The notes under the pieces were generated by a model. That model searched no databases and had not been told where the DNA came from. It saw only the letters and a program-made list of their open reading frames with translations. This document shows, one piece after another, positions 13,130-55,519 of a DNA stretch of 64,000 bases (within the stretch, counting starts at the first letter, position 1; the number at the start of each line of letters is the position of its first letter). Source of the stretch: Oscillospiraceae bacterium (GTDB lineage Bacteria > Bacillota > Clostridia > Oscillospirales > Ruminococcaceae); the NCBI GenBank assembly GCA_018110905.1, contig JAGBAZ010000035.1, forward strand, positions 20,767 to 84,766, given 5' to 3'. Position numbers and translations under genes: made by a program.

Positions 13130-13158
13130 AACAATTCCTACTACTTTTATTTAGCATA

Positions 13159-13192
13159 ATTTGCCGGGACAGAACTTCTGCACCGGCAAATT
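13159..13192 (-). promoter_or_regulatory. intercistronic stem-loop between the binding-protein gene and livH
   Basis: Perfect 10-bp arms aatttgccgg/ccggcaaatt separated by 14 nt. This position is typical of hairpins that raise binding-protein mRNA levels relative to downstream genes. Confidence 0.45.
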
Positions 13193-13232
13193 ATAGTTTA
13201 AGCTATTTTGTTGAAATAAGCAAGTAAAAAAA

Positions 13233-31068: not shown

Positions 31069-31174
31069 TTAATGTCTTATCAGTCAGACCTCTTGATTGC
31101 GCCGAAAGCATAAACCCCTCAAAAGCCTCGGAAATGCTTTCGTTATGCGCTTTTTTCATCATAATTCTTGCCAT
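31069..31174 (-). pseudogene. N-terminal fragment of a tyrosine recombinase/integrase (SAM-like core-binding segment only)
   Basis: MARIMMKKAHNESISEAFEGFMLSAQSRGLTDKTL resembles the start of phage-type integrases (..F..FL......GLS.KTI). Similarity is lost after ~35 aa and there is no catalytic domain. Confidence 0.35.
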
Positions 31175-37183: not shown

Positions 37184-37188
37184 GTATA

Positions 37189-38565
37189 TTACCTCTCTCT
37201 CGATCGTTGTCTGATTTTTTCTTTTTCCAAAACGGAAACTTCCATTTCCATTTCCGTTTTTAAAAGTTCTTTGATTTTCGGAATGTTTTCCGCTATTTCT
37301 TCTGCGGTTTTCTTTCGTTTTCGTAAAGGCGCTATCTCTGCGGAAATATCTTTTGCTCTCTGTTTTAATTTTTCCTCTTCTTCGGGCGTTTTAACCCTCC
37401 GGATTTTGTTATAGATTTTCTGACGCTCGTTTTCGAGATTTTTTATCTTTTCTTCCGTTTCTTCGATAAATGAAAGAAGCTCCTCACCGGTTTCGATTTC
37501 GAATCCGGCAAGAAGCCTTATCTGCTCATTGTATTTATCCAATTTTCTGACCTCATCACGCAGTAGCGGCGAAACGGGTCTTTTCCTTTCCGGCGCATTA
37601 AGGTTCAGCGCATGCAGGAGCATATCTATGAATATCTGCATCAACAGCTGAATCGCGTCCATCTGCATGGCTTTTCTAAATTCTATCTCAATTTCATAAA
37701 GCGGAGTCTTCGGTTTCTTAATCCAGTTCCGCGGTTCAAATTCCGGGTGGTTGGGATTTTGCAAAATACGCTTTTTGATATTTTCCTCGGTATATTTTTC
37801 TCCGAGAGAATCTATGCGGACAGCTCTTTTCCAGCCAGGTGCGATGATTGACGGGTGCGCATAGTTTCCGTTTCTCACATATCGGTAACCCAGCATCATA
37901 AGCTGATGATCGAACTGCTGCCTCGTCATCGCAACGGAAAGTGCCTCATCAATATCTCTTTTGAGCATATCTCTGTGGGTCATGCCGCCGTTCTTATGGA
38001 TCCAGTATTCTTTCTTTTTGCCCTTGCCGTAAAAGTTTGAACCCTTCAGAACGGATTTTCCGTATTCCTTGCATATCTCGTCCGATTCTTCCCGGAGCGC
38101 AATATGGTCGCGGATATGGTTTTCGTATTTCTTTCCGTCAACGAATGATACAGAATTTATGACTATATGATTATGGATATTGTCCGTATTGAGATGGGTG
38201 GTGACTACTATCTCGAATCTTCCTCCCCACATTCTTCTTGCGGTTTTGACGCCGATTTCGTGCGCTTCTTCGGGAGTGACTTCTCCGGTTTTAAAGCTCT
38301 GATAACCATGATATGCAACGTTTCCGCCCTGTTTTCCGAATCTCGCTTTAGTTGCGCTCATCTGTTCGTATGCGGTTTTCGGTGAGCAGTTTATGCCACT
38401 TACATACATCTTTTTATCGGTTTTACTGTCATTTTCCGCATAGCGGATAACATACCACAAATCCTCATCGACACATTTTTTATCAATTGTCTTATCCGGG
38501 TTTTCGGCATAATCTATCACATCTTTGAGCCTGCTTTTAACAGGCCAGAATCCCGTTGTTGCCAT
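37189..38565 (-). CDS. relaxase/mobilization nuclease (MobA/VirD2-type relaxase domain)
   Basis: HLNTDNIHNHIVINSV histidine triad (HxDxxxxHxH-like). Long C-terminal coiled coil. Start overlaps the mobC stop. Confidence 0.82.
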   Translation of the reverse strand: MATTGFWPVKSRLKDVIDYAENPDKTIDKKCVDEDLWYVIRYAENDSKTDKKMYVSGINCSPKTAYEQMSATKARFGKQGGNVAYHGYQSFKTGEVTPEEAHEIGVKTARRMWGGRFEIVVTTHLNTDNIHNHIVINSVSFVDGKKYENHIRDHIALREESDEICKEYGKSVLKGSNFYGKGKKKEYWIHKNGGMTHRDMLKRDIDEALSVAMTRQQFDHQLMMLGYRYVRNGNYAHPSIIAPGWKRAVRIDSLGEKYTEENIKKRILQNPNHPEFEPRNWIKKPKTPLYEIEIEFRKAMQMDAIQLLMQIFIDMLLHALNLNAPERKRPVSPLLRDEVRKLDKYNEQIRLLAGFEIETGEELLSFIEETEEKIKNLENERQKIYNKIRRVKTPEEEEKLKQRAKDISAEIAPLRKRKKTAEEIAENIPKIKELLKTEMEMEVSVLEKEKIRQRSRER

Positions 38566-38894
38566 TATCCGCCCACCGATTTCTTTATCTCGTCTGCGTT
38601 TTCTTTTCCCGGAGAGAGAAACTGCAGACGCATATCTTCGATAAGGGAATCAAGTTTTCTTTCCGCTTCCGGGGAATTTTTATCGAGCTTTTCATTTATT
38701 CGGTAGAGATGATTCATAATGGAATACCATTCAACCGGAGGAATCTCTCTCGGAGAAAATCCCAAAGCCCTTTGCCTCATATATTCCGAAACGGATATTC
38801 CGCATTTCTTTGCGGTGGATTCAATCTTTTTCTTTTCCTGCGGCGATACCCTTAAATCCAGCCGCATTGTCCTTTCTTTTTCATTTCTGTTCAT
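38565..38894 (-). CDS. mobC: MobC-family relaxosome accessory protein
   Basis: RLDLRVSPQEKKKIESTAKKCGISVSEYMRQRALG (ribbon-helix-helix MobC signature), immediately upstream of the relaxase gene. Confidence 0.78.
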   Translation of the reverse strand: MNRNEKERTMRLDLRVSPQEKKKIESTAKKCGISVSEYMRQRALGFSPREIPPVEWYSIMNHLYRINEKLDKNSPEAERKLDSLIEDMRLQFLSPGKENADEIKKSVGG

Positions 38895-38923
38895 TAAAAT
38901 CAGCTCCTTTCCAATTCGGGGTT

Positions 38924-38973
38924 TCAGGGGTTACCCCTGACAAGCGGAACTTGCCGTACAAGTTCCCTGCTTG
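38924..38973. promoter_or_regulatory. candidate oriT: two adjacent inverted repeats just upstream of mobC
   Basis: tcaggggt-t-acccctga (38924-38940) and caagc-ggaacttg-ccgta-caagttcc-ct-gcttg (38941-38973). Confidence 0.4.
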
Positions 38974-39294
38974 TTATTGCATAAGACAGGAATTCTCCTC
39001 TCCCTGTCTTTCAACCTTTCGGAGATATGGGATTCCCTTTTTGTTTTTCTCAAAAGTGATTAAAAGCTTTGCTCCTTTCTCAATATCCTGGATTCCGAGA
39101 TAATTATCTTTCTGCCATGCGGAAGCGATAATTTTTCTTCCGTCAGAAAGAGTGAAAAAGGCAAGAATGTTGATACTGTTGCCCCAATATCTGTCATCAA
39201 GAGTTGCTTCAAAAGTGCCTTCCCGGTCAATGTACTGATATTCATCGGTGCACATTCCGTTATAATAAGATTTTCTGATAGAACAAGTTTTCAT
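38974..39294 (-). CDS. hypothetical protein (106 aa)
   Basis: Start at ATG 39294 (MKTCSIRK) with an AAGGAGGAT RBS. No motif recognised. Confidence 0.45.
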   Translation of the reverse strand: MKTCSIRKSYYNGMCTDEYQYIDREGTFEATLDDRYWGNSINILAFFTLSDGRKIIASAWQKDNYLGIQDIEKGAKLLITFEKNKKGIPYLRKVERQGEENSCLMQ

Positions 39295-39524
39295 AAATAA
39301 ATCCTCCTTAAAAAATGTAATGCCAAAATGATGCCGCCTTGATTTTTCTGCATCAAAAAACGGCATCACTTTGATGCCGTCAGTTTCCGAGAAACATATC
39401 AACCGAATCCAGAAGATCGTTTTCTTCCGAAAGTTCCTCGGTTTTAATAATGTATAATGGTTTTAACCACCTCTTTTCTGAATTTTTGCATAAAAATAAC
39501 ACCTGCCGAAAATAACAGGTGTTA

Positions 39525-40715: not shown

Positions 40716-40750
40716 ATATGTAGTATATAAGCGAACGAAAGGAGATGTTC

Positions 40751-41974
40751 ATGATGTACATCAAACGAGATATTGAGGAAAAAATCATCGCGCTTTCAAA
40801 AGAATATTCCTGCGTTCTGATTACCGGTCCGAGACAGGTTGGCAAAACAACCGTGCTGAAACAGCTGATGAATGATGACCGTGAATACGTAACTCTTGAT
40901 GACCTTGAAGAGCGCAGACTTGCAAAAAACGATCCGGCTCTCTTCCTTCAGCTTCACAATATTCCAATTCTTATTGACGAAGTCCAGTATGCTCCGGAAT
41001 TATTCTCGTATATAAAAATCGCCATTGATAACGGAGCCGCTCCCGGCTCTTTCTGGCTTACCGGTTCCCAGGCTTTCAAGATGATGGAGCTTGCACAGGA
41101 ATCTCTTGCCGGACGCGTTGCGATTCTTCATATGCCTTCCCTTTCTCAGCATGAAATATACGGAAAAGGTAAAAATACACCTTTTATCCCTGACCTTGAA
41201 CTTTTGAAAGAGCGCAGAAAAAATGGAAGTCCTGTTGATTTGAATGAGATTTACGAAAGGATCTGGAAAGGTTCTCTTCCCGGATATGTAAGTGAAAAGT
41301 TCAGCGACAGAAACGTATTCTATTCGAGCTATATCCAGACTTATATTGACCGCGACGTAAGCGAACTCATTTCCAACGTTGATAAACTTGCGTTCAGAGA
41401 TTTTATCAGGGCAGCAGCATGCAGAGCAGGACAGATGCTCAATATTCACGATATCGCACAGGATGTGGGCGTTTCCGATGACACGGCGAAACGCTGGCTC
41501 CAGGTTCTTGAAAAATCCGATATTATTTTCTATTTGCGTCCGTATTCGAACAATCTTCTTAAAAGAACTATCAAAACACCTAAAATGTACTTTTTCGATA
41601 CCGGACTTATCGCATATCTGACGCGATACTCTTCTCCGGAGATTCTTCAAAACGGTGCAATAAACGGAGCAATTCTTGAAAACTACGTTGTTTCCGAAAT
41701 TATTAAGAGCTATCACAACTGCGCCGAGGAATGTCTTATCTGGTATTACCGCGACAAAGAAAGCAACGAAATTGATATGGTTATGGAAAGCGACGGAGTT
41801 CTTAATCCTCTTGAAATTAAACGTTCCGTAAATCCCGGCAGCGAGCTTATCGGAGCATTTTCAATACTCGACAAAGGTTCCGTTCCCCGCGGCAAAGGCG
41901 CGATTCTCTGTATGCGTCCCGAACTCTCCGCAATTAATGCAGACAACTTTATTGTTCCTATCTGGATGATTTAA
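40751..41974 (+). CDS. AAA-family ATPase of the AAA_14/DUF4143 type
   Basis: Walker A ITGPRQVGKTT and Walker B ILIDEVQYAP. The C-terminal region is typical of DUF4143 proteins (FFDTGLIAYL). Start chosen at ATG 40751 for RBS spacing. Confidence 0.78.
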   Translation: MMYIKRDIEEKIIALSKEYSCVLITGPRQVGKTTVLKQLMNDDREYVTLDDLEERRLAKNDPALFLQLHNIPILIDEVQYAPELFSYIKIAIDNGAAPGSFWLTGSQAFKMMELAQESLAGRVAILHMPSLSQHEIYGKGKNTPFIPDLELLKERRKNGSPVDLNEIYERIWKGSLPGYVSEKFSDRNVFYSSYIQTYIDRDVSELISNVDKLAFRDFIRAAACRAGQMLNIHDIAQDVGVSDDTAKRWLQVLEKSDIIFYLRPYSNNLLKRTIKTPKMYFFDTGLIAYLTRYSSPEILQNGAINGAILENYVVSEIIKSYHNCAEECLIWYYRDKESNEIDMVMESDGVLNPLEIKRSVNPGSELIGAFSILDKGSVPRGKGAILCMRPELSAINADNFIVPIWMI

Positions 41975-43404: not shown

Positions 43405-43782
43405 TTATTTACAAATTATTTCCCGGTTGATTATTTCTTCGGCCCTATTGCGTATATTGTTCATTCTTTGAACCCATTCCATTTGATTTCGCTCTTTGAG
43501 CATCTCGTTTACACCCTCGTGCTCGTATATTTGTTTAATGAGCATAGCTTTCATATTTTGAGCACGCTCGTCAATCTCCACAAGGTATGCATTCAATTTT
43601 CCAGTTGTCAGCAGATTTGTGTAACGCACTTTTTTGTGCTGTTTTATATATCTGAGGTGCCGCATACCCCAAATACCTATTTCTTTTTCTTCAATTTGTA
43701 GTGGAAGAAGATTTGGGAGATAATATTCTCCGCAAAGAGTGTAATCAAGTCCGTTTTTCTTGTTATAAATTGTCAGTTCCAT
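43405..43782 (-). CDS. tnpV: TnpV-like transposon-encoded protein
   Basis: MELTIYNKKNGLDYTLCGEYYLPNL...IGIWGMRHLRYIKQHKKVRYTNLLTTGKLNAYLVEID is characteristic of TnpV of clostridial mobilizable transposons. Start at ATG 43782 with an AGAGGTGAG RBS. Confidence 0.72.
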   Translation of the reverse strand: MELTIYNKKNGLDYTLCGEYYLPNLLPLQIEEKEIGIWGMRHLRYIKQHKKVRYTNLLTTGKLNAYLVEIDERAQNMKAMLIKQIYEHEGVNEMLKERNQMEWVQRMNNIRNRAEEIINREIICK

Positions 43783-43786
43783 GTGC

Positions 43787-43969
43787 TCACCTCTTTGCAA
43801 ACCATTTTATTTTCGGCTTGGTATCTATAATCTTTATCATAAGATCATCCACCGCATCCGTATATCGACCTTGCTGAATAAGAGAATTTCTTAAAACATT
43901 CAGAGCATTTATTACTATTCTGTATTCATAGCCATCAAGTTCCAGACAATATTTTTTCTCCATGCTCAA
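43787..43969 (-). CDS. tnpW: TnpW-like small transposon-encoded protein
   Basis: 60 aa, LELDGYEYRIVINALNVLRNSLIQQGRYTDAVDDLMIKI, located directly upstream of tnpV. Confidence 0.55.
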   Translation of the reverse strand: MSMEKKYCLELDGYEYRIVINALNVLRNSLIQQGRYTDAVDDLMIKIIDTKPKIKWFAKR

Positions 43970-44259
43970 TCCTCCTTCAGCATACCGTTTTCCGGCAGAA
44001 CGAATACATCATAAGTAAATCTTGCCCCTAATCTGAATCCAGTAACAAAGCTATCAACAACTGATTTTCCGTCAACGATTCCCCAAGCATCGACATATTC
44101 GAGGAATAATTTCTTGTCTTCCAACGGAAGCTTTTCCAAAAGCACGTCCTCATTTTCATATAATACTTTCATTTCTCTGCTGTAATTTCTGCTTTCTTTC
44201 CGCTTTTTGTTTTGCGGTTCAATGTTCCCATAATAAAGCTCTTCAATAAAATTTACCAT
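43966..44259 (-). CDS. small conserved mobile-element protein (97 aa)
   Basis: LYYGNIEPQ N-terminal motif seen in small proteins of clostridial transposons. First gene behind the 44280-44315 promoter-like motif. AAGGAGG RBS. Confidence 0.5.
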   Translation of the reverse strand: MVNFIEELYYGNIEPQNKKRKESRNYSREMKVLYENEDVLLEKLPLEDKKLFLEYVDAWGIVDGKSVVDSFVTGFRLGARFTYDVFVLPENGMLKED

Positions 44260-44279
44260 TATTTTCGCCTCCTTTGACC

Positions 44280-44315
44280 ATATTTTAGCAAAGGAATTTT
44301 TATTTGGCGAATGTG
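44280..44315 (-). promoter_or_regulatory. second copy of the promoter-like element CACATTCGCCAAA-N15-TAAAATAT
   Basis: Minus strand reads CACATTCGCCAAATAAAAATTCCTTTGCTAAAATAT, with the same 18-nt TTCGCC to TAAAAT spacing as at 32818-32853. Lies 20 nt upstream of the RBS of gene 43966-44259. Confidence 0.45.
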
Positions 44316-44327
44316 TGAAAACAAAAA

Positions 44328-44356
44328 AGACATTGCTACATATGAGAGCAATGTCT
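44328..44356. terminator. rho-independent terminator after the 169-aa gene
   Basis: agacattgct-acatatgag-agcaatgtct flanked by an A-run and a T-run. Confidence 0.7.
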
Positions 44357-44364
44357 TTTCTTAT

Positions 44365-44874
44365 TTATCCATTTTCAATAACCATATCCAACAGTTTCTG
44401 CCATTCATCAAACGATACAAAATGCATAAATTTCTCTTTATCAAAATCAGATGCTGCCATAAAACCGATGAACCCTTTTTGCTTATCAGAACCAACCATG
44501 CCCCAAACATATGAATGTACAATACAGTTGCACAACTCTTTTGTTTTTAGTGTAATGTTTTTTCCGTTATCGTAACTGAAAGCACATACTCTTCCACGGA
44601 AAGTCCAGCATTCATCACCGATGTAAGGAAATTTTATTGCAGAGATTGTAATGTCTTTAATGTTTTTACCTGGAAGAGTTATATTTTTGTCTTTTGCCAA
44701 TTTCTCCAACTCTATTTCTTCTTCAATGGCCTTCCGTATTATGACAGCGGAATATAGAATTGCACGGTCTAATTGGTGTCTGCTGTATTCACTATAAGCA
44801 GATGTTCTTTTCCAAAAAGATATTGCCCACGATAATTTTTTAAGTTCCCATTTCCATCTTCCGTCAAGAACCAT
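44365..44874 (-). CDS. hypothetical protein (169 aa), third gene of the TcmP operon
   Basis: 52 nt downstream of the three-Cys gene on the same strand, followed by a terminator. No motif recognised. Confidence 0.5.
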   Translation of the reverse strand: MVLDGRWKWELKKLSWAISFWKRTSAYSEYSRHQLDRAILYSAVIIRKAIEEEIELEKLAKDKNITLPGKNIKDITISAIKFPYIGDECWTFRGRVCAFSYDNGKNITLKTKELCNCIVHSYVWGMVGSDKQKGFIGFMAASDFDKEKFMHFVSFDEWQKLLDMVIENG

Positions 44875-44926
44875 AGGTCACCTCATTGCACAATGGTAAA
44901 ATCTTTTTCTGTTCATAAATTAGCAC

Positions 44927-45709
44927 TTATCTTATATCCTTCTCACACATATCTGTGACCGTTCCTTCTTTTATATGGCATTTCTTATTATTTTCTTTAC
45001 AAAATTCTTCAACTGTCTGCGCGCATGAATTAAAAAATTGTTTGTAGTTTCTATATTCTGACACTTTTTTGTTGTAATTTAGCCTTCCGAAAATAATTTT
45101 ATCGCAAAAGCTAATTGCTTCAAGAATTGTTTTTATATCTTGCTCAATAAAGTTCGGAGTAGGATATGGTTCAATACTAACCCATGTTTTACATCCTTTA
45201 TCATGCAAATTTTTTAAAGCTTGGATTCTTTCTTCAATGGGTGCAGCATATGGTTCAAAATTATTAATAAAATTTTTATTTAAAGAAACTAATGTTATAC
45301 CATATTCATTTTCCAACGACAAATCCGCAAGATTAATTGGCAAAATTCCTTTTGTTAGAACAGTACACTTAATACCTGCATTATTTAATTTTTTTATAAT
45401 CAAGTACGACATTTCTGAAACCTCTTTATATCCATACATAAATGGATCTGAAGTAAAACAAAGATGTACCGATTTAATTTTGTTTCTATATTTTGGAATT
45501 TCTTGATCAATTATGTCAAGAGCATTTTCAACTAGCTTTGGTTCGCACCACTCTTCGTAAGTCCTTGCCTTTCCAAATCGTTTTGCCATTGCCATCGCAT
45601 AGCAAGGATATTTGCAACCGTGGGAACACCCCTGAATATGGTTAATTGTATAATCTCCGTATTCTACGCCAGTCTTATACAACAATGATTTTCGTTTTAT
45701 ATGTTTCAT
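44927..45709 (-). CDS. three-Cys-motif radical-SAM-like protein (SplB/COG1533-like)
   Basis: NHIQGCSHGCKYPCYA is a CX3CX3C variant of the GC.HGC.YCYA motif of SplB-like radical SAM proteins. ATGA overlap with the upstream TcmP-like gene. Confidence 0.65.
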   Translation of the reverse strand: MKHIKRKSLLYKTGVEYGDYTINHIQGCSHGCKYPCYAMAMAKRFGKARTYEEWCEPKLVENALDIIDQEIPKYRNKIKSVHLCFTSDPFMYGYKEVSEMSYLIIKKLNNAGIKCTVLTKGILPINLADLSLENEYGITLVSLNKNFINNFEPYAAPIEERIQALKNLHDKGCKTWVSIEPYPTPNFIEQDIKTILEAISFCDKIIFGRLNYNKKVSEYRNYKQFFNSCAQTVEEFCKENNKKCHIKEGTVTDMCEKDIR

Positions 45710-46578
45710 CCTATTTTCTCCGCACTTTTTATAATACCTTTTACAAGTTTAGACGCCAAACTTTGGGCTTTCGCACTTTTATTTGTCATCATAAAGCAAA
45801 GCATAAACATAGGCGCATTCTTGCTTTTGTTTTTTAACAATTTTGAATCCGGTGAAACAAATGGAAAAATGGTAGAAAACCTTGCTTTTATATATTCTAA
45901 TACTTTTTCATATTCAACCCTTTCATACTGAGGCTCATCAAAGAAACTCATCTGCGGAGATTCAACAAACAATTCGTCAAGCCAATTTTGATTTCCCAAA
46001 ATTGAAGATATTTTCTCCTTATTAGTGTCCGATATGTCTTTATTTTTTGCCATAAGTCTAACAACTGAAAGAGGAAACAGATACCATAAGTCAACTCTGT
46101 TGCATTTGGATATTTTTTCAAGCGTCTCCCATTTTAATTCCAATGCATATGGATCTAAAAACATCAAACATCTATCATATATCGTAGTTCGCGCCAGAAC
46201 TTTTGTCAGCTCTTCGTTACAATCCCCACTAATAAAATGAATTTTATCAATTTTTTGAGGATATGAGTTTTCTACATTTTCTTCCAATAGCTTTATTCTA
46301 TCCTCATCAAGTTCTAAAAAATAATATTCGTCGAAATCATATTTTAAAGACAACAATGCTGAACCATCTATAATGGCTGCACATTGTTCTCCACTCTTGC
46401 TTTCATGTTTTAATTCGGTTTTCCCACTTCCTGCAAAACCATCAATGTATATCTTTCTAACTTTTTGATTTTTTAAGGCTATAAGATAAGTTTTAGCATA
46501 TTCTTCAATAATATATAATTTTTGTATAGTCCATTCACCGCCAAAATGACTGCCTTTTTGTTTTGTTTGTTTTCCCAT
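45706..46578 (-). CDS. tcmP: three-Cys-motif partner protein TcmP-like (methyltransferase-fold)
   Basis: GGEWTIQKL...YIDGFAGSG (SAM-binding motif I-like) and MFLDPYA (DPPY-like motif IV, as in RlmJ-type enzymes). Family name recalled from NCBI/TIGRFAMs annotation, not verified here. Confidence 0.65.
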   Translation of the reverse strand: MGKQTKQKGSHFGGEWTIQKLYIIEEYAKTYLIALKNQKVRKIYIDGFAGSGKTELKHESKSGEQCAAIIDGSALLSLKYDFDEYYFLELDEDRIKLLEENVENSYPQKIDKIHFISGDCNEELTKVLARTTIYDRCLMFLDPYALELKWETLEKISKCNRVDLWYLFPLSVVRLMAKNKDISDTNKEKISSILGNQNWLDELFVESPQMSFFDEPQYERVEYEKVLEYIKARFSTIFPFVSPDSKLLKNKSKNAPMFMLCFMMTNKSAKAQSLASKLVKGIIKSAEKIG

Positions 46579-46635
46579 AGCTTATTCCTTTCGTTATATT
46601 TGTTTTATATGTCAAGCATTGTAGTAATCTATTTA

Positions 46636-46664
46636 TATTATATGACAACACCATCACATGGTCA
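46636..46664 (-). promoter_or_regulatory. sigma-A-like promoter of the TcmP operon
   Basis: Minus strand has TTGACC, a 17-nt spacer, then TATAAT, about 58 nt upstream of ATG 46578. Confidence 0.55.
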
Positions 46665-46693
46665 AGATAAAATTCGAACATATGTTCATCATT

Positions 46694-46722
46694 AAAGCTG
46701 GAGGCTTTTTGCCTCCAGCTTT
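46694..46722. terminator. 12-bp stem hairpin after hsdR
   Basis: aaagctggaggc-ttttt-gcctccagcttt, 11 nt downstream of the hsdR stop. Confidence 0.55.
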
Positions 46723-46732
46723 AATAGCGCAT

Positions 46733-49700
46733 TTACGCAACCTCTTTATATCGAGTATAGACATACTCATAAATCTTCTGGCGATATTCAGAGATACTTA
46801 ATTCATCATAGCATTCCGGAAGTTCGGCCCAAAGAGTATCACGAATAAGATTATCGACAGCTGCCTTCGTTTCCTGTTTATCAGTCCAGTGATCCAATTC
46901 GGAAATTTTATCCTTTATTTTTTGGAGCAACGTAGAAGCAACCATTTTTATTTTTTTGATATCATTTTTCCCTAAATCTTCACGGAACAGCATATCGTAG
47001 AATGAAAGCTCTTCATCGCTTGCAAAGCCTTCACGGACATAACGCTGTTCTTCCTGAGTCATCTGGTTGGCCAAATCCATCAAATCCATAAAAGTTTTTT
47101 CTATGGTTGCTCTGTTTTGTTCACTATTATAGTCGTCTATAATCTGTTGATAACGTTCATAATAGTTAACTCGTTCAGAATTTGCAAACAGCATCATATC
47201 AAGTTTTTGTTTGATAATCTCTTCAAGATCTCTCAGTACAAGATTCTTTTTATTTAATCTCGCAAACTCTCTGCGAAGCAAATCAAAGTCTATAGCACTT
47301 ATATCAAATCTTTTGGATTCTTCGTTTTTTTCTGCTTCGTCATGCTGAATTTCCACATAAGAGCTTATAATTTCATTGATTTGTACCATTAAATCTGTTG
47401 TATCTACATGTCTGCGTTTTTTCTGAAGTTCAGAATAAATTGCTGCGATTGCTTCGTATTCTTTACGAGCATCTGCCGTAATGTCGTTGCGGTCAATATA
47501 TTTCATGAGACGATTAAGTTCAGAAGCATATGTTGTAAAGGTTTTCTTTTCCTCAAGTGTTTCACAAGCCGCATTGGCACCTTCCTGAAGACAAGCAATC
47601 TTTGCAAAATCGTGTGCCTCAATAAGCTTCTGCAAATCAAATCCTTTGTTTTCTAAGAAGGCTTTTGCTTTACCGGTAGTTTCTATAATTCTTTCTATAA
47701 GTTCTTCTTTATCAACAGTCGGATCATTTCCGCCGCTTCCACCAATATTTGCAGTATAGTCTGCCAAAGCTTTTCGGAGAGCTTTTACAATACCGATATA
47801 GTCAATAATCAAACCGTTGCTTTTACCTGCACTGACACGGTTAGCACGAGCAATAGTTTGCATAAGAGTGTGTGCTTTAAGCGGTTTATCGAGATACAAA
47901 CAGGACAAACATTTAACATCAAATCCGGTAAGCCACATCGCACAAACAAAAACGACTCGAAGAGGATTTTGAGAATCTTTGAATTCCTTATCCAGCTCGC
48001 GTTTTTCCATCTTGGTGCGGTGATACTTTATATCCAGATCCCATTTTTTAAAAGTTTGTATTTCATTCTGTTCCTGGCTGATAACAACAGCCATTTCCGT
48101 ATCCTGCATCCATTTGAGTTTTCGTCCAAATTCCTGTGCTTCCTGCTGAGTTGCGTGTTTGATTCTTTCTTTCAGTTTTTCGATTTCTTCTGCCCAATAT
48201 TCCTGAACATAGTTATACATACGGACACAGGTTACTTTGTTAAGGCAAACGAACATAGCTTTACCGCTTGTCCACAAATCCGAATAATGGTTTACAAAAT
48301 CGTGGGCTATGGATTTAAGCCTTTGCTCCGCTGTAAGTAAATGTATTTCTTTAGCAAATTCTGCTTCAAGTTTATCCTGCTGGTCAACGTCAAGATCGGC
48401 GTTTTCAATAGCATCGAGAATCTGTTCTGTAATTTCCGGGTTATGTAAATCGACGATTTTTTCGCCGCGGTTTTCATAATAAAGCGGAACTGTCGCACCG
48501 TCTTCCACTGCACGTTTAAAGTCATAAACAGAAACATATCCGCCGAAAGTACGCGCAGTTATATTGTCACTCGACAACAGTGGTGTTCCGGTAAATCCGA
48601 TTCGTGCCGCAGTGGGCAGCAATTTCATCATATTATCCGCAAAGATTCCGTACTGACTGCGGTGCGCTTCATCGGACATAATGATTACGTCGTGGTCAGG
48701 ATAAATCGGTTCTACATCAGATTTATTGAATTTTTGTATAAGCGTGAAAATGAAACTCGGGTTACCTTTGAGTTTTTGAATAAGGTCGTCCCCGCTCGTG
48801 GCAATGAACTGAGATGCTTTATTTTTGCCAAGTAAACCACAGTTTTCAAAAGTATCGCTGATCTGCGAATTAAGCTCGTCACGGTCAGTTAGAATTACAA
48901 AAGTAGGTGAACCTTCAAATTTTCTGCGCACTTTCTGTGCAAGAAATACCATGGAATAGCTCTTGCCGGAGCCCTGTGTATGCCAGAAAACGCCGAGTTT
49001 TCCGTCATTAAGTTTTCTTGCGGCGTAAGCTTTCATTGCTTCGTTTACGCCAAGATACTGGTGATTACGGGCAAGAATTTTTGCTGTATGGCCACCGGAA
49101 TGGTCGTACAGAATAAAGTTTTCGAACAAATCGAGAAAGTTTTCTTTCTTGCAGATACCACGGAGCATTGTTTCGAGCGCAACGCTGCCCTGATCATCTT
49201 CCGCAAGGCGTTTCCATTCATGGAAAAATTCAAACTTACTGCCGAGAGTGCCGACCTTAGCTTCCGTACCGTTGGAAAGCATGAGGAATGCATTGTAATA
49301 GAACAGATGGGGAATGGTATCCTGATAATCTGTATAGTTATCGTCATATGCATTTCGTACATCAACAGAGGTCTTTTTAAGTTCCACAAACAAGAGCGGG
49401 ATTCCGTTTACAAAGCCGACAATATCTGTTCTGCGACGATATAAATCTCCGTGGATTTTCAGTTCCTTGATTGCAAGAAAATAGTTATTCACGGGATTCT
49501 GAAAATCAATGACGGCCGCTTTCTTAGTTTCCGTTTTGCCGCCGGGTTTCTTTACAGTAACAGGAATACCGTCGCGGATGAGAAAATATTTTTCTTCATT
49601 TACCTGCAAAAGGGAGGAGGTGGAAAGTCTGTTTTCAAGAAGTTTTTCCGCTTCCGAAATCTGAGCATCGTTTATCCAGGGATTCAGCTTTTTAAGAGCT

Positions 49701-49873
49701 TCGTGGAAATAGCGGTGGAGCAGAATTTCCTTATAGCTTTCTCTTCCGAATGTGCCGTCTTTGCCCAGAATTTCTGTATTATAAGCAAACCGGACATCCC
49801 AGCCCAGTTCATCTTTGAGCAGATTACCGGCACTTTCCTGAACAAGTATGTTTTCGGAATAATCATAGCTCAT
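46733..49873 (-). CDS. hsdR: type I restriction enzyme R subunit
   Basis: 1046 aa. Helicase motif I HTQGSGKS, DEAH box MSDEAHRSQ, motif VI QTIARANR, and N-terminal nuclease region. Confidence 0.92.
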   Translation of the reverse strand: MSYDYSENILVQESAGNLLKDELGWDVRFAYNTEILGKDGTFGRESYKEILLHRYFHEALKKLNPWINDAQISEAEKLLENRLSTSSLLQVNEEKYFLIRDGIPVTVKKPGGKTETKKAAVIDFQNPVNNYFLAIKELKIHGDLYRRRTDIVGFVNGIPLLFVELKKTSVDVRNAYDDNYTDYQDTIPHLFYYNAFLMLSNGTEAKVGTLGSKFEFFHEWKRLAEDDQGSVALETMLRGICKKENFLDLFENFILYDHSGGHTAKILARNHQYLGVNEAMKAYAARKLNDGKLGVFWHTQGSGKSYSMVFLAQKVRRKFEGSPTFVILTDRDELNSQISDTFENCGLLGKNKASQFIATSGDDLIQKLKGNPSFIFTLIQKFNKSDVEPIYPDHDVIIMSDEAHRSQYGIFADNMMKLLPTAARIGFTGTPLLSSDNITARTFGGYVSVYDFKRAVEDGATVPLYYENRGEKIVDLHNPEITEQILDAIENADLDVDQQDKLEAEFAKEIHLLTAEQRLKSIAHDFVNHYSDLWTSGKAMFVCLNKVTCVRMYNYVQEYWAEEIEKLKERIKHATQQEAQEFGRKLKWMQDTEMAVVISQEQNEIQTFKKWDLDIKYHRTKMEKRELDKEFKDSQNPLRVVFVCAMWLTGFDVKCLSCLYLDKPLKAHTLMQTIARANRVSAGKSNGLIIDYIGIVKALRKALADYTANIGGSGGNDPTVDKEELIERIIETTGKAKAFLENKGFDLQKLIEAHDFAKIACLQEGANAACETLEEKKTFTTYASELNRLMKYIDRNDITADARKEYEAIAAIYSELQKKRRHVDTTDLMVQINEIISSYVEIQHDEAEKNEESKRFDISAIDFDLLRREFARLNKKNLVLRDLEEIIKQKLDMMLFANSERVNYYERYQQIIDDYNSEQNRATIEKTFMDLMDLANQMTQEEQRYVREGFASDEELSFYDMLFREDLGKNDIKKIKMVASTLLQKIKDKISELDHWTDKQETKAAVDNLIRDTLWAELPECYDELSISEYRQKIYEYVYTRYKEVA

Positions 49874-49886
49874 GTTGTCATCCCTT

Positions 49887-51245
49887 TCATTTTATTATTT
49901 GCAAAACTTCAATGAATTTTTTCAATTCTTCAGCATTTTTCTTGTATGGCTCATACACTCCGCCCCATGTGTACTTAAAACGAATCAATCCGCCTTTATT
50001 ATTATGAACATTATACCATGTAAATAAAATCGCTGACGGAAGACTTAATGTTTCTGGGAAAGTATAAACTGTGGAGTCGTTTGCATAAGAACTACGATTT
50101 ATATCAAATTTTATTTGATTAAACCTTTTACTAAAAAATTCAACAAATGGTGGTTTTGCAGCGTTTGAATATTGTACAAATATACTATCAAAAGAATTTA
50201 CATTTATTTTATTAGTACCTACAAATGCTCTATACCCATACTTATAATACATTACTATAGCCAATAATTCCACGCACATAAAAGAATAGTCTTTTTTATC
50301 CGTATATAAAAGTTTATGTATAAGCATCGCTCTATGCATCAGTTCTTCCTGTGTTCTTGGTTCTATATCTTTAAATATTATTTGTAAATACTCTTCTATA
50401 GGTTCATCAAAAAAAACAATATCTTTGTCGAACAGTTCTACGTAGTCCGCATACTTCTCTGTTATTTTTTCTGATACCTCACCTTTATCAAGTTTGATTT
50501 CAAAATTGATAAACTTTTCAAGATATTTATTCCCTTCAGCAAAACCAAAAAGATGTTTGACACTACACTCAAGCTGCTTTTTATCTGTCGCAATAATTGT
50601 TATTATATTGCTTTTTTCTTCTGTAAGATGGTGGAGGCGTTCAAGCACTTTAATAGCATATTCGGGTATGCACCTATCAAGCTCATCTACGATAATTACA
50701 ACTGTGTGTTCATCTGCAATTTCTTGAAGAAGATTAGAAAGTTTCTCTATAACCTTGTTAAGCCCAAGATATGTATCATACGCATGGTCTTTTTCGTATT
50801 TTTCGGCTCCTTCTTTTTCACCTTTAATTACGGTTTCAACTGCGCTTTTAATATCAATACCCGTTTCAGCTTTAATTGCAGTATTAGCCAATGACAGCAA
50901 CGAAACTCCTGCCGCTTTAAGCATACCGATTATTTCCTGCTTTTCTTTCTCATCAGAAAATAGAGCTGTTTTTTTCTCAATCTCTGCAATTATTGTTGAC
51001 ACTATGGCTATGAGCGGTTCTTCATAATAATCGTGTTTCCAACTGTTATATCTAACAACAAAATATTTTTCAGAATAAAGGCTATTCAGTTGTTCTTCAA
51101 TCATATCAAGAACAAAGCTTTTACCTGTACCCCATTCACCATCTATTGCAAAACAAGTTGAAACTTTATTGTCAGATATATTCTCAAGCAAATTTATAAC
51201 CTGTTCAACAAATGCTCCGCGATTTAATATATCCAGCTTGTCCAT
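49887..51245 (-). CDS. KAP-family P-loop NTPase embedded between hsdS and hsdR
   Basis: KAP-type Walker A DGEWGTGKSF and Walker B VVIIVDELDRC. Start at ATG 51245 with a GAGGTG RBS inside the hsdS 3' end. 13 nt upstream of hsdR. Confidence 0.82.
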   Translation of the reverse strand: MDKLDILNRGAFVEQVINLLENISDNKVSTCFAIDGEWGTGKSFVLDMIEEQLNSLYSEKYFVVRYNSWKHDYYEEPLIAIVSTIIAEIEKKTALFSDEKEKQEIIGMLKAAGVSLLSLANTAIKAETGIDIKSAVETVIKGEKEGAEKYEKDHAYDTYLGLNKVIEKLSNLLQEIADEHTVVIIVDELDRCIPEYAIKVLERLHHLTEEKSNIITIIATDKKQLECSVKHLFGFAEGNKYLEKFINFEIKLDKGEVSEKITEKYADYVELFDKDIVFFDEPIEEYLQIIFKDIEPRTQEELMHRAMLIHKLLYTDKKDYSFMCVELLAIVMYYKYGYRAFVGTNKINVNSFDSIFVQYSNAAKPPFVEFFSKRFNQIKFDINRSSYANDSTVYTFPETLSLPSAILFTWYNVHNNKGGLIRFKYTWGGVYEPYKKNAEELKKFIEVLQIIK

Positions 51246-51249
51246 AAAC

Positions 51250-52452
51250 TTACACCTCAATTTCCCCGCTCATCAGTTTTGGCAACAAACGATCACGAGC
51301 CTGCTGAAGTAAAATAATTTGCTTTGCCAATCCGTTTATTTTTTCTATAATTGGTTTAATCTGCTGTCCAAAATCCTCTGCTTTATCCTTGTTTGGAATA
51401 AGGATTGGCATGTTTTTAAAGTCTTTCCAACGCACATATGGCATCGTTGTGCCAACCGAGATTTGCGTTGCGTAATCAACTGTATCGGTAGAAAACAGCA
51501 GCATAACAACATAAGCCCAATATTCACTTTCTTTGGCATTAAGCACAAAGCATGTTGTTCTCGTAATACCGCTATCCCGTGCAACCGCTACTTTGTGGAA
51601 ATACGGACGCATTGCACCAAATATGATGTCTTTACCGGCAAAAGCAACTAATGAACTTTCTGCTAATGCCACACTATTAGTATCAACATACCCCAATGAC
51701 TTTTTGGGAATACAATCTATCGGTAAATAGTAAGTGTAGTTCCCTCGTTTTTCTTTAGATATCTTTTTTCCGGTTTCTGCTACAACATCACCAAGCGCTC
51801 CAGGTTTCCACCCTTCCGGCACGCCATCTACTATTGCCACATTTTCATGCCCCGGGAAACGCAAATCCACAAACCATTCCTTATAAAGGCGTTGTGCAGC
51901 TTCTTCAAGAAGTTTGATTTGCTTCTGGTTGTTTTCTATAAGAGAATCATAATTAGATAAAATATTCGATACTTTTTCTTGTGTTTTTCTGTCTGGGAAA
52001 TTAATTTCTAATTCCCCTATTTGTCTTAAATTGATATTAGGTTGTGCCGATTGACTTTGTACCGTATTTACTTTTTTTATTAATTCCGGGAGGTTCAAAT
52101 AATAATACACAAACTCATTAGAACATTTTTCATTATCGACTCTTATAAGTGCCGTTGCTTGATTTGTGTTTGCAGGAACATCTTCGGAACGAACCATTGC
52201 TGTTTTTCCCAAATATGCTCCTGCCATTGAAAATAAAATATCCCCTTCAATCAGTTTTGAGCGTTTTAATTTTTCATTTGTTTCTGGAGAAATATACAAA
52301 AACTCTCCAGTAACATATTTAGATGCAGTTAGCATTTCTGAACGAATGTATTTAACGCCAGATTCAGTAAAAGTTTCTCCGATATTCGATGGGGTTGTCC
52401 CTTTTGTTATTACAGTACATACGTCTGCCAACTTTACTATTTCCCAGCTCAT
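51250..52452 (-). CDS. hsdS: type I restriction-modification system specificity subunit
   Basis: Two target-recognition domains separated by conserved helical spacers (QKQIKLLEEAAQRLYKEWF and AKQIILLQQARDRLLPKLM). ATGA overlap with hsdM. Confidence 0.9.
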   Translation of the reverse strand: MSWEIVKLADVCTVITKGTTPSNIGETFTESGVKYIRSEMLTASKYVTGEFLYISPETNEKLKRSKLIEGDILFSMAGAYLGKTAMVRSEDVPANTNQATALIRVDNEKCSNEFVYYYLNLPELIKKVNTVQSQSAQPNINLRQIGELEINFPDRKTQEKVSNILSNYDSLIENNQKQIKLLEEAAQRLYKEWFVDLRFPGHENVAIVDGVPEGWKPGALGDVVAETGKKISKEKRGNYTYYLPIDCIPKKSLGYVDTNSVALAESSLVAFAGKDIIFGAMRPYFHKVAVARDSGITRTTCFVLNAKESEYWAYVVMLLFSTDTVDYATQISVGTTMPYVRWKDFKNMPILIPNKDKAEDFGQQIKPIIEKINGLAKQIILLQQARDRLLPKLMSGEIEV

Positions 52453-54470
52453 AATCCCATCTCCTTTATATTTTTAGAGATAGTTTCCATCAAATCGTTG
52501 GATTCTACCTGCAAGGATAAAAGTTCACGGTGGATTTCTGCCATACGTTCTTCAAAATCAACGCCATCATTTTTAATTTCTTCGACTCCTACATAAGCTC
52601 CCGGAGTAAGTGAATAACCTTTTTCACAGATTTCAGAGCGGGAAGCGCATTTGCACAATCCGAGAATATCTCTGTATTCTCCTTCCCCGAATTTATCCAT
52701 AAGCCAGCGGGCTTCTTTTATAACCTCTCGCAATTCAGCAAGCCGTTTAAAATTACTTTCAACATATTCCTCAAGTTCTTTTCTGTGGCGTTTCCATTTG
52801 CCTTTTCCAAGTTCTTTTGCCCAACCTGCCCATTGACTTTCGGGTTTGTTTTTGAACTGATCTTCTGTGCTTTTTATGAAGTTTGCAACCATTGCCTTCT
52901 GCAATTCCATAAATCCATTAATCTCAGAATCGCAAGACATACAATCCCAAATATTATCAAGTTTTCTTCTATCAAAATCGCTTCCGTTAACAAAAGTTCT
53001 AAGCGGAGAATAGAATTCCGGATCCATTCTTCTCGCAAGCATTTTTGCTTCGAACTCAAGTTCCCGCAATTCGCTTTTTATAGCTTTGCAATATTCATTT
53101 TTCAAATTTTCAAATTTCTCAGTTTCTCCGCGATAAAGCCAGACGATTGCATTAAGGTTTTTAAGCTGCCATTCTGTCCACTCGTTAAGGGTGCGGTCAA
53201 CCACGGTATAATAATTTCTTGCGTCGATGAACAGAACCTTGTCCTTGATTTCTTCATTTTTTGCTTTATCGAAGAACCAAAGAGAGCAGGGCAGAGATTT
53301 TGTATAGAAAAAGTTATTTCCTACACTGATCATTACATCAACATCGCCGGTTTCAACCAATTTCTGACGGATGTCTTTATCTTTTCCCTGGCTGTCTGTT
53401 GCAGAAGATGCCATAACAAAACCTGCACGGCCGTGTTCATTAAGGTAGCTGTAGAAATAGGAAATCCAAAGATAGTTTCCGTTGCCCACTTCTTTGTTTT
53501 TGTTGATTCCGGGCATGCCGAAAGGAAGGCGTCCTGCGTTTTCGCAGGATTCCGCTTTTACTTTATCCACATTGAAAGGCGGGTTTGCCATAACATAGTC
53601 ACAGCAACCATTGAGGTTGTGAGCATCGTGATAAAAGCTGTTTGCTTCATCGCCGGATTTGATAACACCGGTAAGTCCGTGAACAGCTATGTTCATAAGG
53701 CAAAGCTGAGCATTATACTCAACCTTTTCCTGACCATAGAAGGTCATAGTGTCATTGGCGTTCATACCGGAACGGTTTACAAAATCTCCGGATTGGATAA
53801 ACATACCGCCGGAACCGCAAGCCGGATCCAGCAAGATTCCGCCTTTGGGTTCAATGATGTTTACAATCATTTTTACAAGGGATTTCGGGGTGAAGAAAAC
53901 GCCATCATCGGATGCAATGTTTTTAGCGAATTTATTGAGGAAATATTCGTAAATTCGGCCGATAATATCTCCGCCAACTTCATCAAAAGCACTGTTGTTG
54001 AAAATGCGGAGAAGCTCGGAAAGAAGTTCATCGGAAAAATCAGTATAGCTTTTAGGGAGTACACCGATGAGCTGTTCGCTCTGGTCTTCAATAAGCTGCA
54101 TTGCGTTGTTTACAACTTCTCCAAGGCTGTTCATGGTGTGGCCGTCTTTATTGGTCAATCCTGCAGATGCAATATCATCCGGAAGATTGAGCAAATAATC
54201 ATACTGTGCTTCTTTCGGCAAAAAGAGCGCACTTTTAGCAGCAAAGTCGCTTGCTTCAACAGGCATTACTCTTCCGCCGCGAGCGGGACGATTTTTTTGA
54301 ATTTCTGCTTCCACCATTTTAAATCTGCTGTAAGCGTAACGCAGGAAAATAAGGCCGAGCACCGGCATACAATACTGGTTCGATGTAAGTTTTGAACCTG
54401 CACGGAGCAGGTCAGCAGATTCCCATAATTCTGCTTCCAATTTACGAATGTTGATCATGATTTTTTCCAA
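52449..54470 (-). CDS. hsdM: type I restriction-modification system methyltransferase subunit (long form)
   Basis: N-terminal HsdM domain (LWESADLLRAG), motif I DPACGSGGMF, motif IV NPPF. About 150 extra residues lie before the conserved C-terminal GYSLTPGAYVGV tail. Confidence 0.9.
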   Translation of the reverse strand: MEKIMINIRKLEAELWESADLLRAGSKLTSNQYCMPVLGLIFLRYAYSRFKMVEAEIQKNRPARGGRVMPVEASDFAAKSALFLPKEAQYDYLLNLPDDIASAGLTNKDGHTMNSLGEVVNNAMQLIEDQSEQLIGVLPKSYTDFSDELLSELLRIFNNSAFDEVGGDIIGRIYEYFLNKFAKNIASDDGVFFTPKSLVKMIVNIIEPKGGILLDPACGSGGMFIQSGDFVNRSGMNANDTMTFYGQEKVEYNAQLCLMNIAVHGLTGVIKSGDEANSFYHDAHNLNGCCDYVMANPPFNVDKVKAESCENAGRLPFGMPGINKNKEVGNGNYLWISYFYSYLNEHGRAGFVMASSATDSQGKDKDIRQKLVETGDVDVMISVGNNFFYTKSLPCSLWFFDKAKNEEIKDKVLFIDARNYYTVVDRTLNEWTEWQLKNLNAIVWLYRGETEKFENLKNEYCKAIKSELRELEFEAKMLARRMDPEFYSPLRTFVNGSDFDRRKLDNIWDCMSCDSEINGFMELQKAMVANFIKSTEDQFKNKPESQWAGWAKELGKGKWKRHRKELEEYVESNFKRLAELREVIKEARWLMDKFGEGEYRDILGLCKCASRSEICEKGYSLTPGAYVGVEEIKNDGVDFEERMAEIHRELLSLQVESNDLMETISKNIKEMGL

Positions 54471-55500: not shown

Positions 55501-55519
55501 TTTTATCCCTTCTCAATAA

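Follow-up and report, generated by a model that had tools for sequence, protein, structure and literature searches.

In a 64,000-nt stretch of DNA from an Oscillospiraceae bacterium (GenBank assembly GCA_018110905.1, contig JAGBAZ010000035.1, positions 20,767 to 84,766 of the forward strand; hereafter the window), a gene for TcmP (three-Cys-motif partner protein) is followed by a gene for a radical S-adenosylmethionine (rSAM) protein. The comparisons presented here predict that the functional unit is this two-gene, horizontally mobile module and not a trio. A sequence-only reading of the window had proposed the larger unit, namely, an orphan and undescribed system of three genes encoding TcmP (gene 1), the rSAM protein (gene 2), and a 169-amino-acid protein that it did not recognize (gene 3). 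An open reading frame (ORF) listing of the region bore out three ORFs at the proposed positions, all on the minus strand and in one orientation (Table 1).

TcmP and the rSAM protein form a conserved pair

Our scan of one genome per species found close relatives of gene 2 in at least 574 genomes, and the term orphan was therefore an overstatement. The best 80 of these relatives share 61 to 79% identity with gene 2 and come from Clostridia, Christensenellaceae, Coriobacteriia, Actinomycetota, Nitrospirota, Parcubacteria, Firestonebacteria, Sphaerochaetaceae, Parasutterella, and Deltaproteobacteria, a spread that points to horizontal transfer. We analyzed the loci of these 80 genomes together with an independent set of 69 putatively viral IMG/VR contigs. 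At 83 of 85 loci, the rSAM gene is preceded on its strand by a tightly coupled gene, and 73 of the 74 upstream partners of at least 200 amino acids match the TcmP model TIGR04474 (E ≤ 0.001). A broader hidden Markov model placed a same-strand TcmP gene directly upstream of the rSAM gene at 75/79 of the genome loci and 60/65 of the IMG/VR loci, and the gene downstream of the rSAM gene differs at almost every locus. Within the window, genes 1 and 2 overlap by an ATGA visible in the sequence at 45706-45709, as had been pointed out before, through which gene 2 is translationally coupled to gene 1.

The two partners differ sharply in their conservation. Over 74 loci, the median pairwise identity is 66% for the rSAM protein (5 to 95% range, 60 to 75) versus 29% for TcmP (5 to 95% range, 23 to 51), and the two sets of identities show almost no correlation (Spearman rho of 0.065). 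Such a contrast between a constant enzyme and a diversifying partner would be expected if TcmP sets specificity or faces an arms race.

Gene 3 belongs to the downstream TnpV block

The alternative of a three-gene system, in which the 169-amino-acid protein would serve the TcmP-rSAM pair as effector, regulator, or immunity component, draws on the arrangement seen in the window. Gene 3 lies on the same strand as the pair, separated from gene 2 by a 52-nt gap with a good ribosome-binding site (GAGGTG), and a terminator was found after gene 3, whereas no terminator-like structure lies between genes 2 and 3. These features make a three-gene transcript plausible, and all three genes are probably cotranscribed here. 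The terminator proposed at the end of the unit proved by folding to be a real hairpin with a T-run, and a second strong hairpin stands right after the hsdR stop codon, where it sets the Type I restriction-modification (R-M) operon apart from the TcmP unit, and strong hairpins thus flank this unit on both sides. A consensus terminator scanner returned zero terminators in the region, the one after gene 3 included, and the hairpins were confirmed by folding. The promoter TTGACC-17-TATAAT is present as proposed and is the top match (11/12) within 43800-47000, but its coordinates are shifted by one base (46637-46665 and not 46636-46664). Since promoter-like sites as a class were not above shuffled expectation (15 found versus 14.7 expected), we regard it as a plausible consensus match only.

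Against a trio, the gene 3 family was found in none of the 149 other pair-bearing loci (80 genome and 69 IMG/VR loci). A gene 3 profile searched against 1.84 billion representative proteins retrieved 286 relatives, nearly all of them stand-alone proteins of approximately 170 to 190 amino acids, and the homologs whose surroundings we inspected trail other cargo: a set of RES, DUF4145-like (HEPN-like), and 280-amino-acid genes behind a Type I R-M operon (locus L006 of our collection), hsdM, straight after which stands a truncated copy (L093), a serine recombinase gene (L089), or a Type IIG methylase gene (L092). None of these four loci carries TcmP or the rSAM gene.

The DNA itself, compared by blastn, points to a junction between the pair and gene 3. 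The window from 44874 to 43405, that is, from the gene 3 ATG to the end of TnpV, is 89% identical to positions 8001-9469 of L006, so that the shared DNA spans gene 3, the DUF6809 gene, a 60-amino-acid ORF, and TnpV. Homology to L008 likewise starts exactly at 44874, and that to L093 begins at the same point and extends also to the relaxase region (92%). In the pair-bearing loci L009 and L011, homology is limited to 46583-44950 and ends before the spacer. By these alignments, the spacer is the junction of two DNA modules of independent origin, and gene 3 belongs to the downstream DUF6809-TnpV block and not to the pair. It is best seen as a promoterless gene at the cargo-proximal end of this block that would be transcribed by read-through from the upstream cargo. 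The claim that the three genes make up one system was thus not upheld, and we regard a three-gene system as very improbable. We also compared the DNA upstream of the gene 3 start codon for a conserved recombination site; the sequences share no more than an ATTGT pentamer and the ribosome-binding region.

As in the sequence-only reading, the gene 3 product matched nothing in Pfam, NCBIfam, PADLOC, PHROGs, or PDB sequences. Its AlphaFold2 (AF2) model (pLDDT of 84.9) shows a long helical hairpin packed against a sheet of five strands, with a helix at the C terminus, and a fold search with this model found no relative in the PDB (best E of 0.33) or BFVD (best E of 0.2). Distant gene 3 paralogs of 172 and 185 amino acids (24 to 27% identity, E of about 1e-7) adjoin R-M genes in L006 and L092. 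Beside members of the family, R-x4-H (HEPN-like) motifs were recognized by eye in the 280-amino-acid protein of L006 (RSSAVH) and in a 178-amino-acid protein of L092 (RNSLLH), and a 312-amino-acid protein of L006 gave a weak DUF4145 match; the gene 3 family may thus partner with HEPN-type proteins. The genes of approximately 280 amino acids that precede the gene 3 homologs in L006 and L089 were considered as a conserved partner and rejected, as the two proteins are unrelated.

TcmP has a predicted RlmJ-like fold

Gene 1 matched the NCBIfam model TIGR04474 with 160.4 bits (E of 7.8e-47) over model positions 1-253 of 263, passing the curated whole-protein cutoff of 53 bits. It has no Pfam family and no significant relative in a sequence search of PDB chains. 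Its AF2 model, computed with 38 homologs in the alignment, reached a pLDDT of 88.5 and a pTM of 0.86, and Foldseek returned Escherichia coli RlmJ and the DUF519 protein LPL1258 as the top PDB matches (E of 2.2e-7, TM-scores of 0.46 to 0.53), with other class I SAM methyltransferases ranking below them. In line with this, HHalign aligned a profile of 74 diverse TcmPs (alignment A3) with E. coli RlmJ at 93.8% probability (E of 1.8e-7), from the glycine-rich motif I loop (YIDcFAGxG versus YLDTHAGAG) to the motif IV loop (DP-Y versus DPPY). The model and the profiles support a putative RlmJ-like SAM-methyltransferase fold for TcmP, which had been proposed from the motifs YIDGFAGSG and MFLDPYA; both are indeed present in gene 1 and conserved, and the expected TcmP family hit was obtained.

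The only near-invariant TcmP positions are K29, Y36, D57, G63, D159, P160, and R193 (numbered as in the first sequence of A3), some of which fall in the motif I and DP-Y loops, so that the motifs kept are the SAM-binding DxFAGxG and the base-pocket DP-Y. The proteins fall into a short form of approximately 290 amino acids (17 loci, the window included) and a long form of approximately 390 amino acids (57 loci), and a C-terminal GMT-like winged helix-turn-helix (wHTH) is detectable in 7/74. Unlike RlmJ, a stand-alone housekeeping enzyme, TcmP is hypervariable, mobile, and coupled to a three-Cys enzyme. The two are approximately 11 to 12% identical, the DPPY of RlmJ is replaced by DP-Y through a one-residue gap in the HHalign alignment, and the large RlmJ insertion of approximately 45 residues after motif I corresponds in short-form TcmP to a short loop of variable length and low model confidence.

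The kinship with RlmJ bears on another explanation, that the methyltransferase-like protein and its rSAM partner modify RNA. By analogy with Cfr, which is an rSAM rRNA methylase, they would act on rRNA or tRNA and confer, for instance, a transferable antibiotic-resistance or translational-fitness trait. The best structural and profile relative is after all the 23S rRNA m6A2030 methyltransferase, the rSAM protein is highly conserved across phyla, as would fit a recently spread trait, and Tn4451-family elements, to which the surrounding element appears related (see below), carry resistance genes. The strongest argument against this explanation is that TcmP is hypervariable, which is hard to square with a target as universally conserved as rRNA or tRNA. 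The wHTH of some TcmPs, neighbors that are R-M and defense genes and not resistance genes, and an rSAM protein that falls in the neighborhood of spore photoproduct lyase (SPL), COG1533, and DUF5131 and not in the RlmN/Cfr class argue in the same direction, and we consider RNA modification improbable.

The rSAM partner carries a noncanonical cluster motif

Gene 2 passed the Pfam Radical_SAM model PF04055 over residues 22-198 (44.4 bits, gathering score of 29.5), which was the second family hit foreseen by the sequence-only reading. Its cluster motif, GCSHGCKYPCYA, is present and conserved. The loop has the form CxHGCx[YF]PC, hence a CX3CX3C spacing, in 81/81 gene 2 relatives, and the canonical CX3CX2C occurs in none. 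The motif had been described as expanded by one residue, and this was correct: pairwise alignments to a canonical PA0069-family protein (GCEHGCIY-CFA) and to the TcmP-linked rSAM protein of a Halopiger plasmid (GCRHGCKF-CY) each contain a lone gap, exactly at the Pro of gene 2.

Beyond the superfamily level, gene 2 stayed below the cutoffs of the families tested: 45.3 bits versus a cutoff of 360 for the PA0069 family, 38.7 versus 430 for the Rv2578c family (both COG1533), 55.3 versus an equivalog cutoff of 410 for the Radical SAM mobile pair protein B (TIGR04470), and 27.3 versus a gathering score of 28.9 for DUF5131 (PF07505), the last over model positions 2-85 of 243 only. Judged by these scores, gene 2 is a distant relative and not a member of the PA0069, Rv2578c, mobile pair B, and DUF5131 families. 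The gene 2 protein and the rSAM profile had no significant match among PDB chains. The Pfam hit, the subthreshold family hits, and the PA0069 alignment, over approximately 190 residues with 25% identity and including the GCxHGC-aromatic-C-[YF]-A loop, nevertheless relate gene 2, as had been suggested, to the SPL/COG1533/DUF5131 part of the rSAM superfamily. In the RadicalSAM.org classification, DUF5131 constitutes Megacluster-5-2 and SPL constitutes Megacluster-5-3 (PMC9477430).

This relationship could be taken to mean that the pair repairs DNA, with gene 2 as an SPL-like lyase and TcmP as a lesion-recognition partner, the damage perhaps being linked to restriction or to single-stranded DNA transfer. 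The weak kinship of gene 2 with families annotated as DNA repair photolyase or PA0069 speaks for it, SPL acts on DNA and belongs with gene 2 to the rSAM superfamily, and SPL is, to our knowledge, the only characterized enzyme in this neighborhood. Gene 2, however, lies outside the SPL-like families, its scores being far under their cutoffs, and it differs from SplB-like proteins in the Pro insertion of the cluster loop, in its smaller size (260 amino acids), and in its obligate pairing with TcmP. As neither a hypervariable partner nor an association with R-M operons of three types would be expected of a repair enzyme, we regard this explanation as the least probable of those considered here.

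The pair is enriched beside restriction-modification genes

Besides the pair itself, no neighbor family occurs in more than 10 of the 80 loci. The recurrent neighbors are Type III Mod (10 loci), Type III Res (7 to 8 loci), MmeI-type enzymes (3 loci), serine and tyrosine recombinases, TnpV and DUF6809 (4 other loci each, 5 with the window), AAA_14/DUF4143 (4 other loci), Fic, and Schlafen/AlbA. The near and far genes of the same loci served as a control for adjacency, with a probe set for R-M and mobile genetic elements that underestimates such genes: R-M matches fell from 7.8% of the genes at a distance of one to two genes from the pair to 2.0% at three to four, 0.3% at five to seven, and 0% at eight or more. 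R-M genes stand near the pair on the same strand in 17/80 loci (ten Type III, three MmeI, and four Type I-like), with gaps down to 4 to 26 nt, as between Res and the following TcmP gene (L012 and L032), between an MmeI-type gene and TcmP (L056 and L073), or between the rSAM gene and Mod (L069). The order of the window, hsdR followed by TcmP and the rSAM gene, is repeated in L016. Among 120 randomly chosen close neighbors, the Pfam census was led by ResIII, DNA methylases, integrases, Eco57I/MmeI, Fic, HipA, and HNH, and the PADLOC census of the same genes was led by Type III, II, IIG, and I methyltransferases, mad2, DrmMI, and PDC-S11, with mad2-like proteins accounting for 3/120. The pair is therefore enriched beside known defense genes, those of R-M systems. 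The homologs occur in variable islands and not mainly in housekeeping operons, as had been anticipated; a single species, described below, deviates.

Another reading puts the pair on the other side of the conflict, where it would protect the mobile element itself, modifying the element's own or incoming DNA to escape restriction in the recipient and thus serving as an anti-restriction device. The pair in the window rides as cargo on a mobilizable element that also encodes a serine recombinase, TnpV, a relaxase, and ParB, recombinases lie within 10 kb in many loci, and the 69 pair-bearing IMG/VR contigs are putatively viral; moreover, there are distant phage relatives of the rSAM protein (phrog_13321 and Bacteroides phage genes), and the partner family DUF5131 is named for phage Gp37/Gp68. 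These points are countered by the repeated sharing of operons with complete R-M systems, and not just with transfer genes nearby, and by the lack of a PHROG family for TcmP. Close homologs are, in addition, essentially missing from isolated phage genomes and sequenced plasmids, and the authors of PADLOC saw a related pair embedded in defense systems (bioRxiv 10.1101/2024.01.29.577857). We therefore consider counter-defense rather unlikely.

Proposed function of the pair

The repeated insertion of the pair in R-M operons, or its abutment to them, makes an accessory role in DNA modification or processing the most likely one, and we consider it moderately probable that the two genes form a SAM-dependent accessory DNA-modification or DNA-processing module of restriction-type immunity. 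TcmP would be the fast-evolving subunit that binds SAM and selects and presents, or flips, the target base, and gene 2 would supply the slowly evolving rSAM protein, whose radical chemistry would stay constant and act on the nucleic acid thus presented, most probably DNA. In the window, the module is carried as cargo of the element directly behind the Type I R-M operon, with a putative promoter of its own, and elsewhere it is repeatedly inserted in or tightly abuts Type III, MmeI-type, and Type I R-M operons; gene 3 is an unrelated passenger of the TnpV block that would be read through from the upstream cargo. We infer the DNA substrate, the division of labor, and the defense role alike, and the genomic context strengthens the earlier proposal that the genes may modify nucleic acid as, or together with, an anti-phage system. 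More tentatively, we suggest a novel type of DNA chemistry associated with restriction: the hypervariable RlmJ-like subunit could flip out a specific base, recognized through its sequence context, and present it to the CX3CX3C rSAM protein, whose radical chemistry would yield either a hitherto undescribed epigenetic DNA mark that tells self from nonself or radical damage to invader DNA. R-M operons of Type I, Type III, and the MmeI type would be the hosts of such a module.

Several points weigh against an accessory module of restriction-type immunity. With its noncanonical CX3CX3C spacing, the gene 2 protein is only a putative [4Fe-4S]-binding and SAM-cleaving enzyme, and TcmP, in which DP-Y stands where amino-methyltransferases have DPPY, is only a putative methyltransferase. 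RlmJ, the closest solved structure, acts on rRNA and not on DNA; the Foldseek TM-scores are moderate, about 0.5; and a narrow TcmP alignment (A1) gave an unconvincing 4.4% against RlmJ in HHalign. About half of the 80 loci carry no marker of R-M, mobile elements, or defense with the limited BLAST probes used, the 80 loci are skewed to close relatives, being the best of at least 574, and the genes were called by a greedy longest-ORF heuristic. A literature search found no biochemical or phenotypic report on any TcmP or partner. In one gut species (L001-L005), moreover, the pair lies between genes for TrkA and for WG-repeat surface proteins, and the TcmP-like partner of 278 amino acids (for example, L001 7175-8011) is devoid of the N-terminal motif I.

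The partner in L001-L005 starts near FVDPY, has a weak GMT-like wHTH match, and sits upstream of a 78%-identical rSAM gene; it may be a degenerate or repurposed version. Every one of the 24 contigs read for it, of which 5 are shown, has the TrkA/WG-repeat arrangement.

Relation to known systems

The co-occurrence of TcmP with three-Cys proteins is already known from TIGR04474 and from the PADLOC candidate PDC-M41. The latter, the TcmP-DUF5131 pair, belongs to a group of 145 untested candidates with which PADLOC was extended on the basis of guilt-by-embedding (bioRxiv 10.1101/2024.01.29.577857), and in an annotation table, the TcmP gene SMa2243 adjoins hna in Sinorhizobium meliloti (PMC12445080). 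Searches of the literature for TcmP, DUF5131, PF07505, PDC-M41, and rSAM proteins in anti-phage defense yielded annotation-table mentions only. The characterization of TcmP as a family named for co-occurrence held good, as we found no published function; the description of the system as undescribed went too far, given the curated family name and the PADLOC candidate.

The window resembles TIGR04474 and PDC-M41 in that a full-length TcmP has a coupled partner whose N-terminal part carries a three-Cys motif, and it resembles PDC-M41 in its context of defense genes and mobile DNA. The PADLOC run that had been suggested gave a split result. Gene 1 matched PDC-M41A (PDLC04635) with 241.9 bits, so the A component is present, whereas gene 2 scored 27.8 bits against PDC-M41B, aligning only approximately 80 N-terminal residues (12-91) with positions 3-81 of the 241-position model. 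The locus falls outside the PDC-M41 definition because its B component is of a different family, a true Radical_SAM-domain protein with a CX3CX3C loop and not DUF5131 (Gp37/Gp68). The order of the genes differs as well, TcmP preceding the rSAM gene here and following the Gp37/Gp68 gene on proteobacterial plasmids.

The type of TcmP partner and the gene order vary by lineage. On a haloarchaeal plasmid (L095, Halopiger, NC_015667), the rSAM gene precedes TcmP and a second, divergent rSAM gene lies nearby. A Nostoc plasmid (L168) carries a divergent rSAM gene and TcmP next to the BREX genes brxL and brxA. On the alphaproteobacterial plasmids L169 (Leisingera) and L170 (Acetobacter), the Gp37/Gp68 (DUF5131) gene precedes TcmP with a 4-nt overlap, and the Leisingera pair adjoins abortive infection (Abi) genes.

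The pair, which occurs within Type I, Type III, and MmeI R-M operons or directly against them, is akin to the embedded R-M genes of the guilt-by-embedding study (Payne et al. 2024). In contrast to R-M and MADS systems, it has no nuclease or sensor component of its own. The likeness of TcmP to the MADS DNA N6-methyltransferase mad2 is at the level of a generic methyltransferase fold, the PADLOC mad2 match of gene 1 being very weak (18 bits).

The surrounding mobile element

The G+C content is 0.33 at the TcmP unit versus 0.42 to 0.48 in the left part of the window, and the low-GC block at approximately 31 to 57 kb looks like one Tn4451-like mobilizable element with defense cargo. Together with the Type I R-M operon next to the unit, this agrees with the island of defense and mobile genes that the sequence-only reading had described. 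Repeats marking the ends of the element were sought and none was identified, so its boundaries are approximate. The long SIR2_2 gene beside the serine recombinase is probably another defense cargo gene. The KAP NTPase gene embedded between hsdS and hsdR is the kind of gene that Payne et al. (2024) used to nominate defense candidates. Farther along, the 313-amino-acid integrase-like protein matches phrog_5830 (E of 6.5e-7). Its place between hsdM and an N6_Mtase-Methylase_S fusion gene, the latter identified by Pfam, raised the idea of a phase-variable hsdS shufflon, which was found unsupported, with one weak 33-nt inverted repeat (79% complementary) only.

The metagenomic contig L093 is 92% identical in DNA over its positions 12030-14378 to the relaxase/ParB region of the window (37102-39447) and, where the window has its cargo, carries an RdRP-like gene of 971 amino acids and a Fic gene. 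This contig looks like a sibling of the window's mobilizable element with other cargo.

Table 1. Features of the window and, in the last two rows, of comparison loci. Strand is given where assigned; aa, amino acids; RBS, ribosome-binding site.
Feature	Coordinates	Strand	Basis and remarks
Large serine recombinase	31143-32789		Pfam
SIR2_2 protein, 987 aa	32947-35910	-	Pfam; lowest-GC stretch of the window (0.28); adjoins serine recombinase
ParB-like protein	36317-37183		Pfam
MobA/VirD2 relaxase	37189-38565		Pfam
AAA_14/DUF4143 ATPase	40745-41974	+	Pfam
DUF5655 C-terminal domain with NucS-like nuclease N-terminal region, 302 aa	42034-42942	-	Pfam; between TnpV and AAA_14/DUF4143
DUF6809-TnpV block	43405-44259	-	TnpV (43405-43800; Pfam, E 9e-43), 60-aa ORF, DUF6809 (43966-44259; Pfam, E 6e-22); element backbone traveling with gene 3
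Terminator-like hairpin and T-run	44328-44356	-	-19.6 kcal/mol, z = -6.33; 3' end of the transcription unit
Gene 3	44365-44874	-	169 aa; no family or fold match
Spacer	44875-44926	-	52 nt with RBS; junction of two DNA modules (blastn and junction alignment)
Gene 2, rSAM protein	44927-45709	-	260 aa; noncanonical cluster motif C28-x3-C32-x3-C36
Gene 1, TcmP, short form	45706-46578	-	290 aa; predicted RlmJ-like class I SAM-methyltransferase fold; motif I YIDGFAGSG, motif IV-like FLDPY
Sigma-70-like promoter TTGACC-17-TATAAT	46637-46665	-	Putative; consensus match 11/12
Hairpin after hsdR stop codon	About 46694-46722	-	-26.9 kcal/mol, z = -7.05
Type I R-M operon	46733-54470	-	Pfam; hsdR 46733-49873, hsdS 51250-52452, hsdM 52449-54470
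KAP-family P-loop NTPase, 457 aa	49887-51260	-	Pfam; between hsdS and hsdR
313-aa integrase-like protein between an N6_Mtase and Methylase_S fusion gene and hsdM	Region 54559-57253	-	
Distant gene 3 paralogs and neighbors, L006	4278-4796 and 7136-7978		Gene 3 family members and partners
Distant gene 3 paralogs and neighbors, L092	4848-5405 and 6110-6646		Gene 3 family members and partners

Implications

What is new here is the two-gene composition of the unit, the size and phyletic spread of its rSAM subfamily, the asymmetry between a constant and a hypervariable partner, the distance-dependent, operon-level link to Type III, MmeI, and Type I R-M systems, and the junction at the gene 3 start codon, where the 52-nt spacer marks the site of a mobile-element cargo swap. 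We know of very few characterized examples of rSAM chemistry on DNA and of no established role for rSAM enzymes in restriction-type immunity, apart from viperin-like enzymes, which act on nucleotides. As a unit of just two genes that occurs in Archaea and, across phyla, in hundreds of species, and that is repeatedly welded into R-M operons of three types, the pair constitutes a well-defined target in which a new DNA modification or a new R-M-linked layer of defense may be found.

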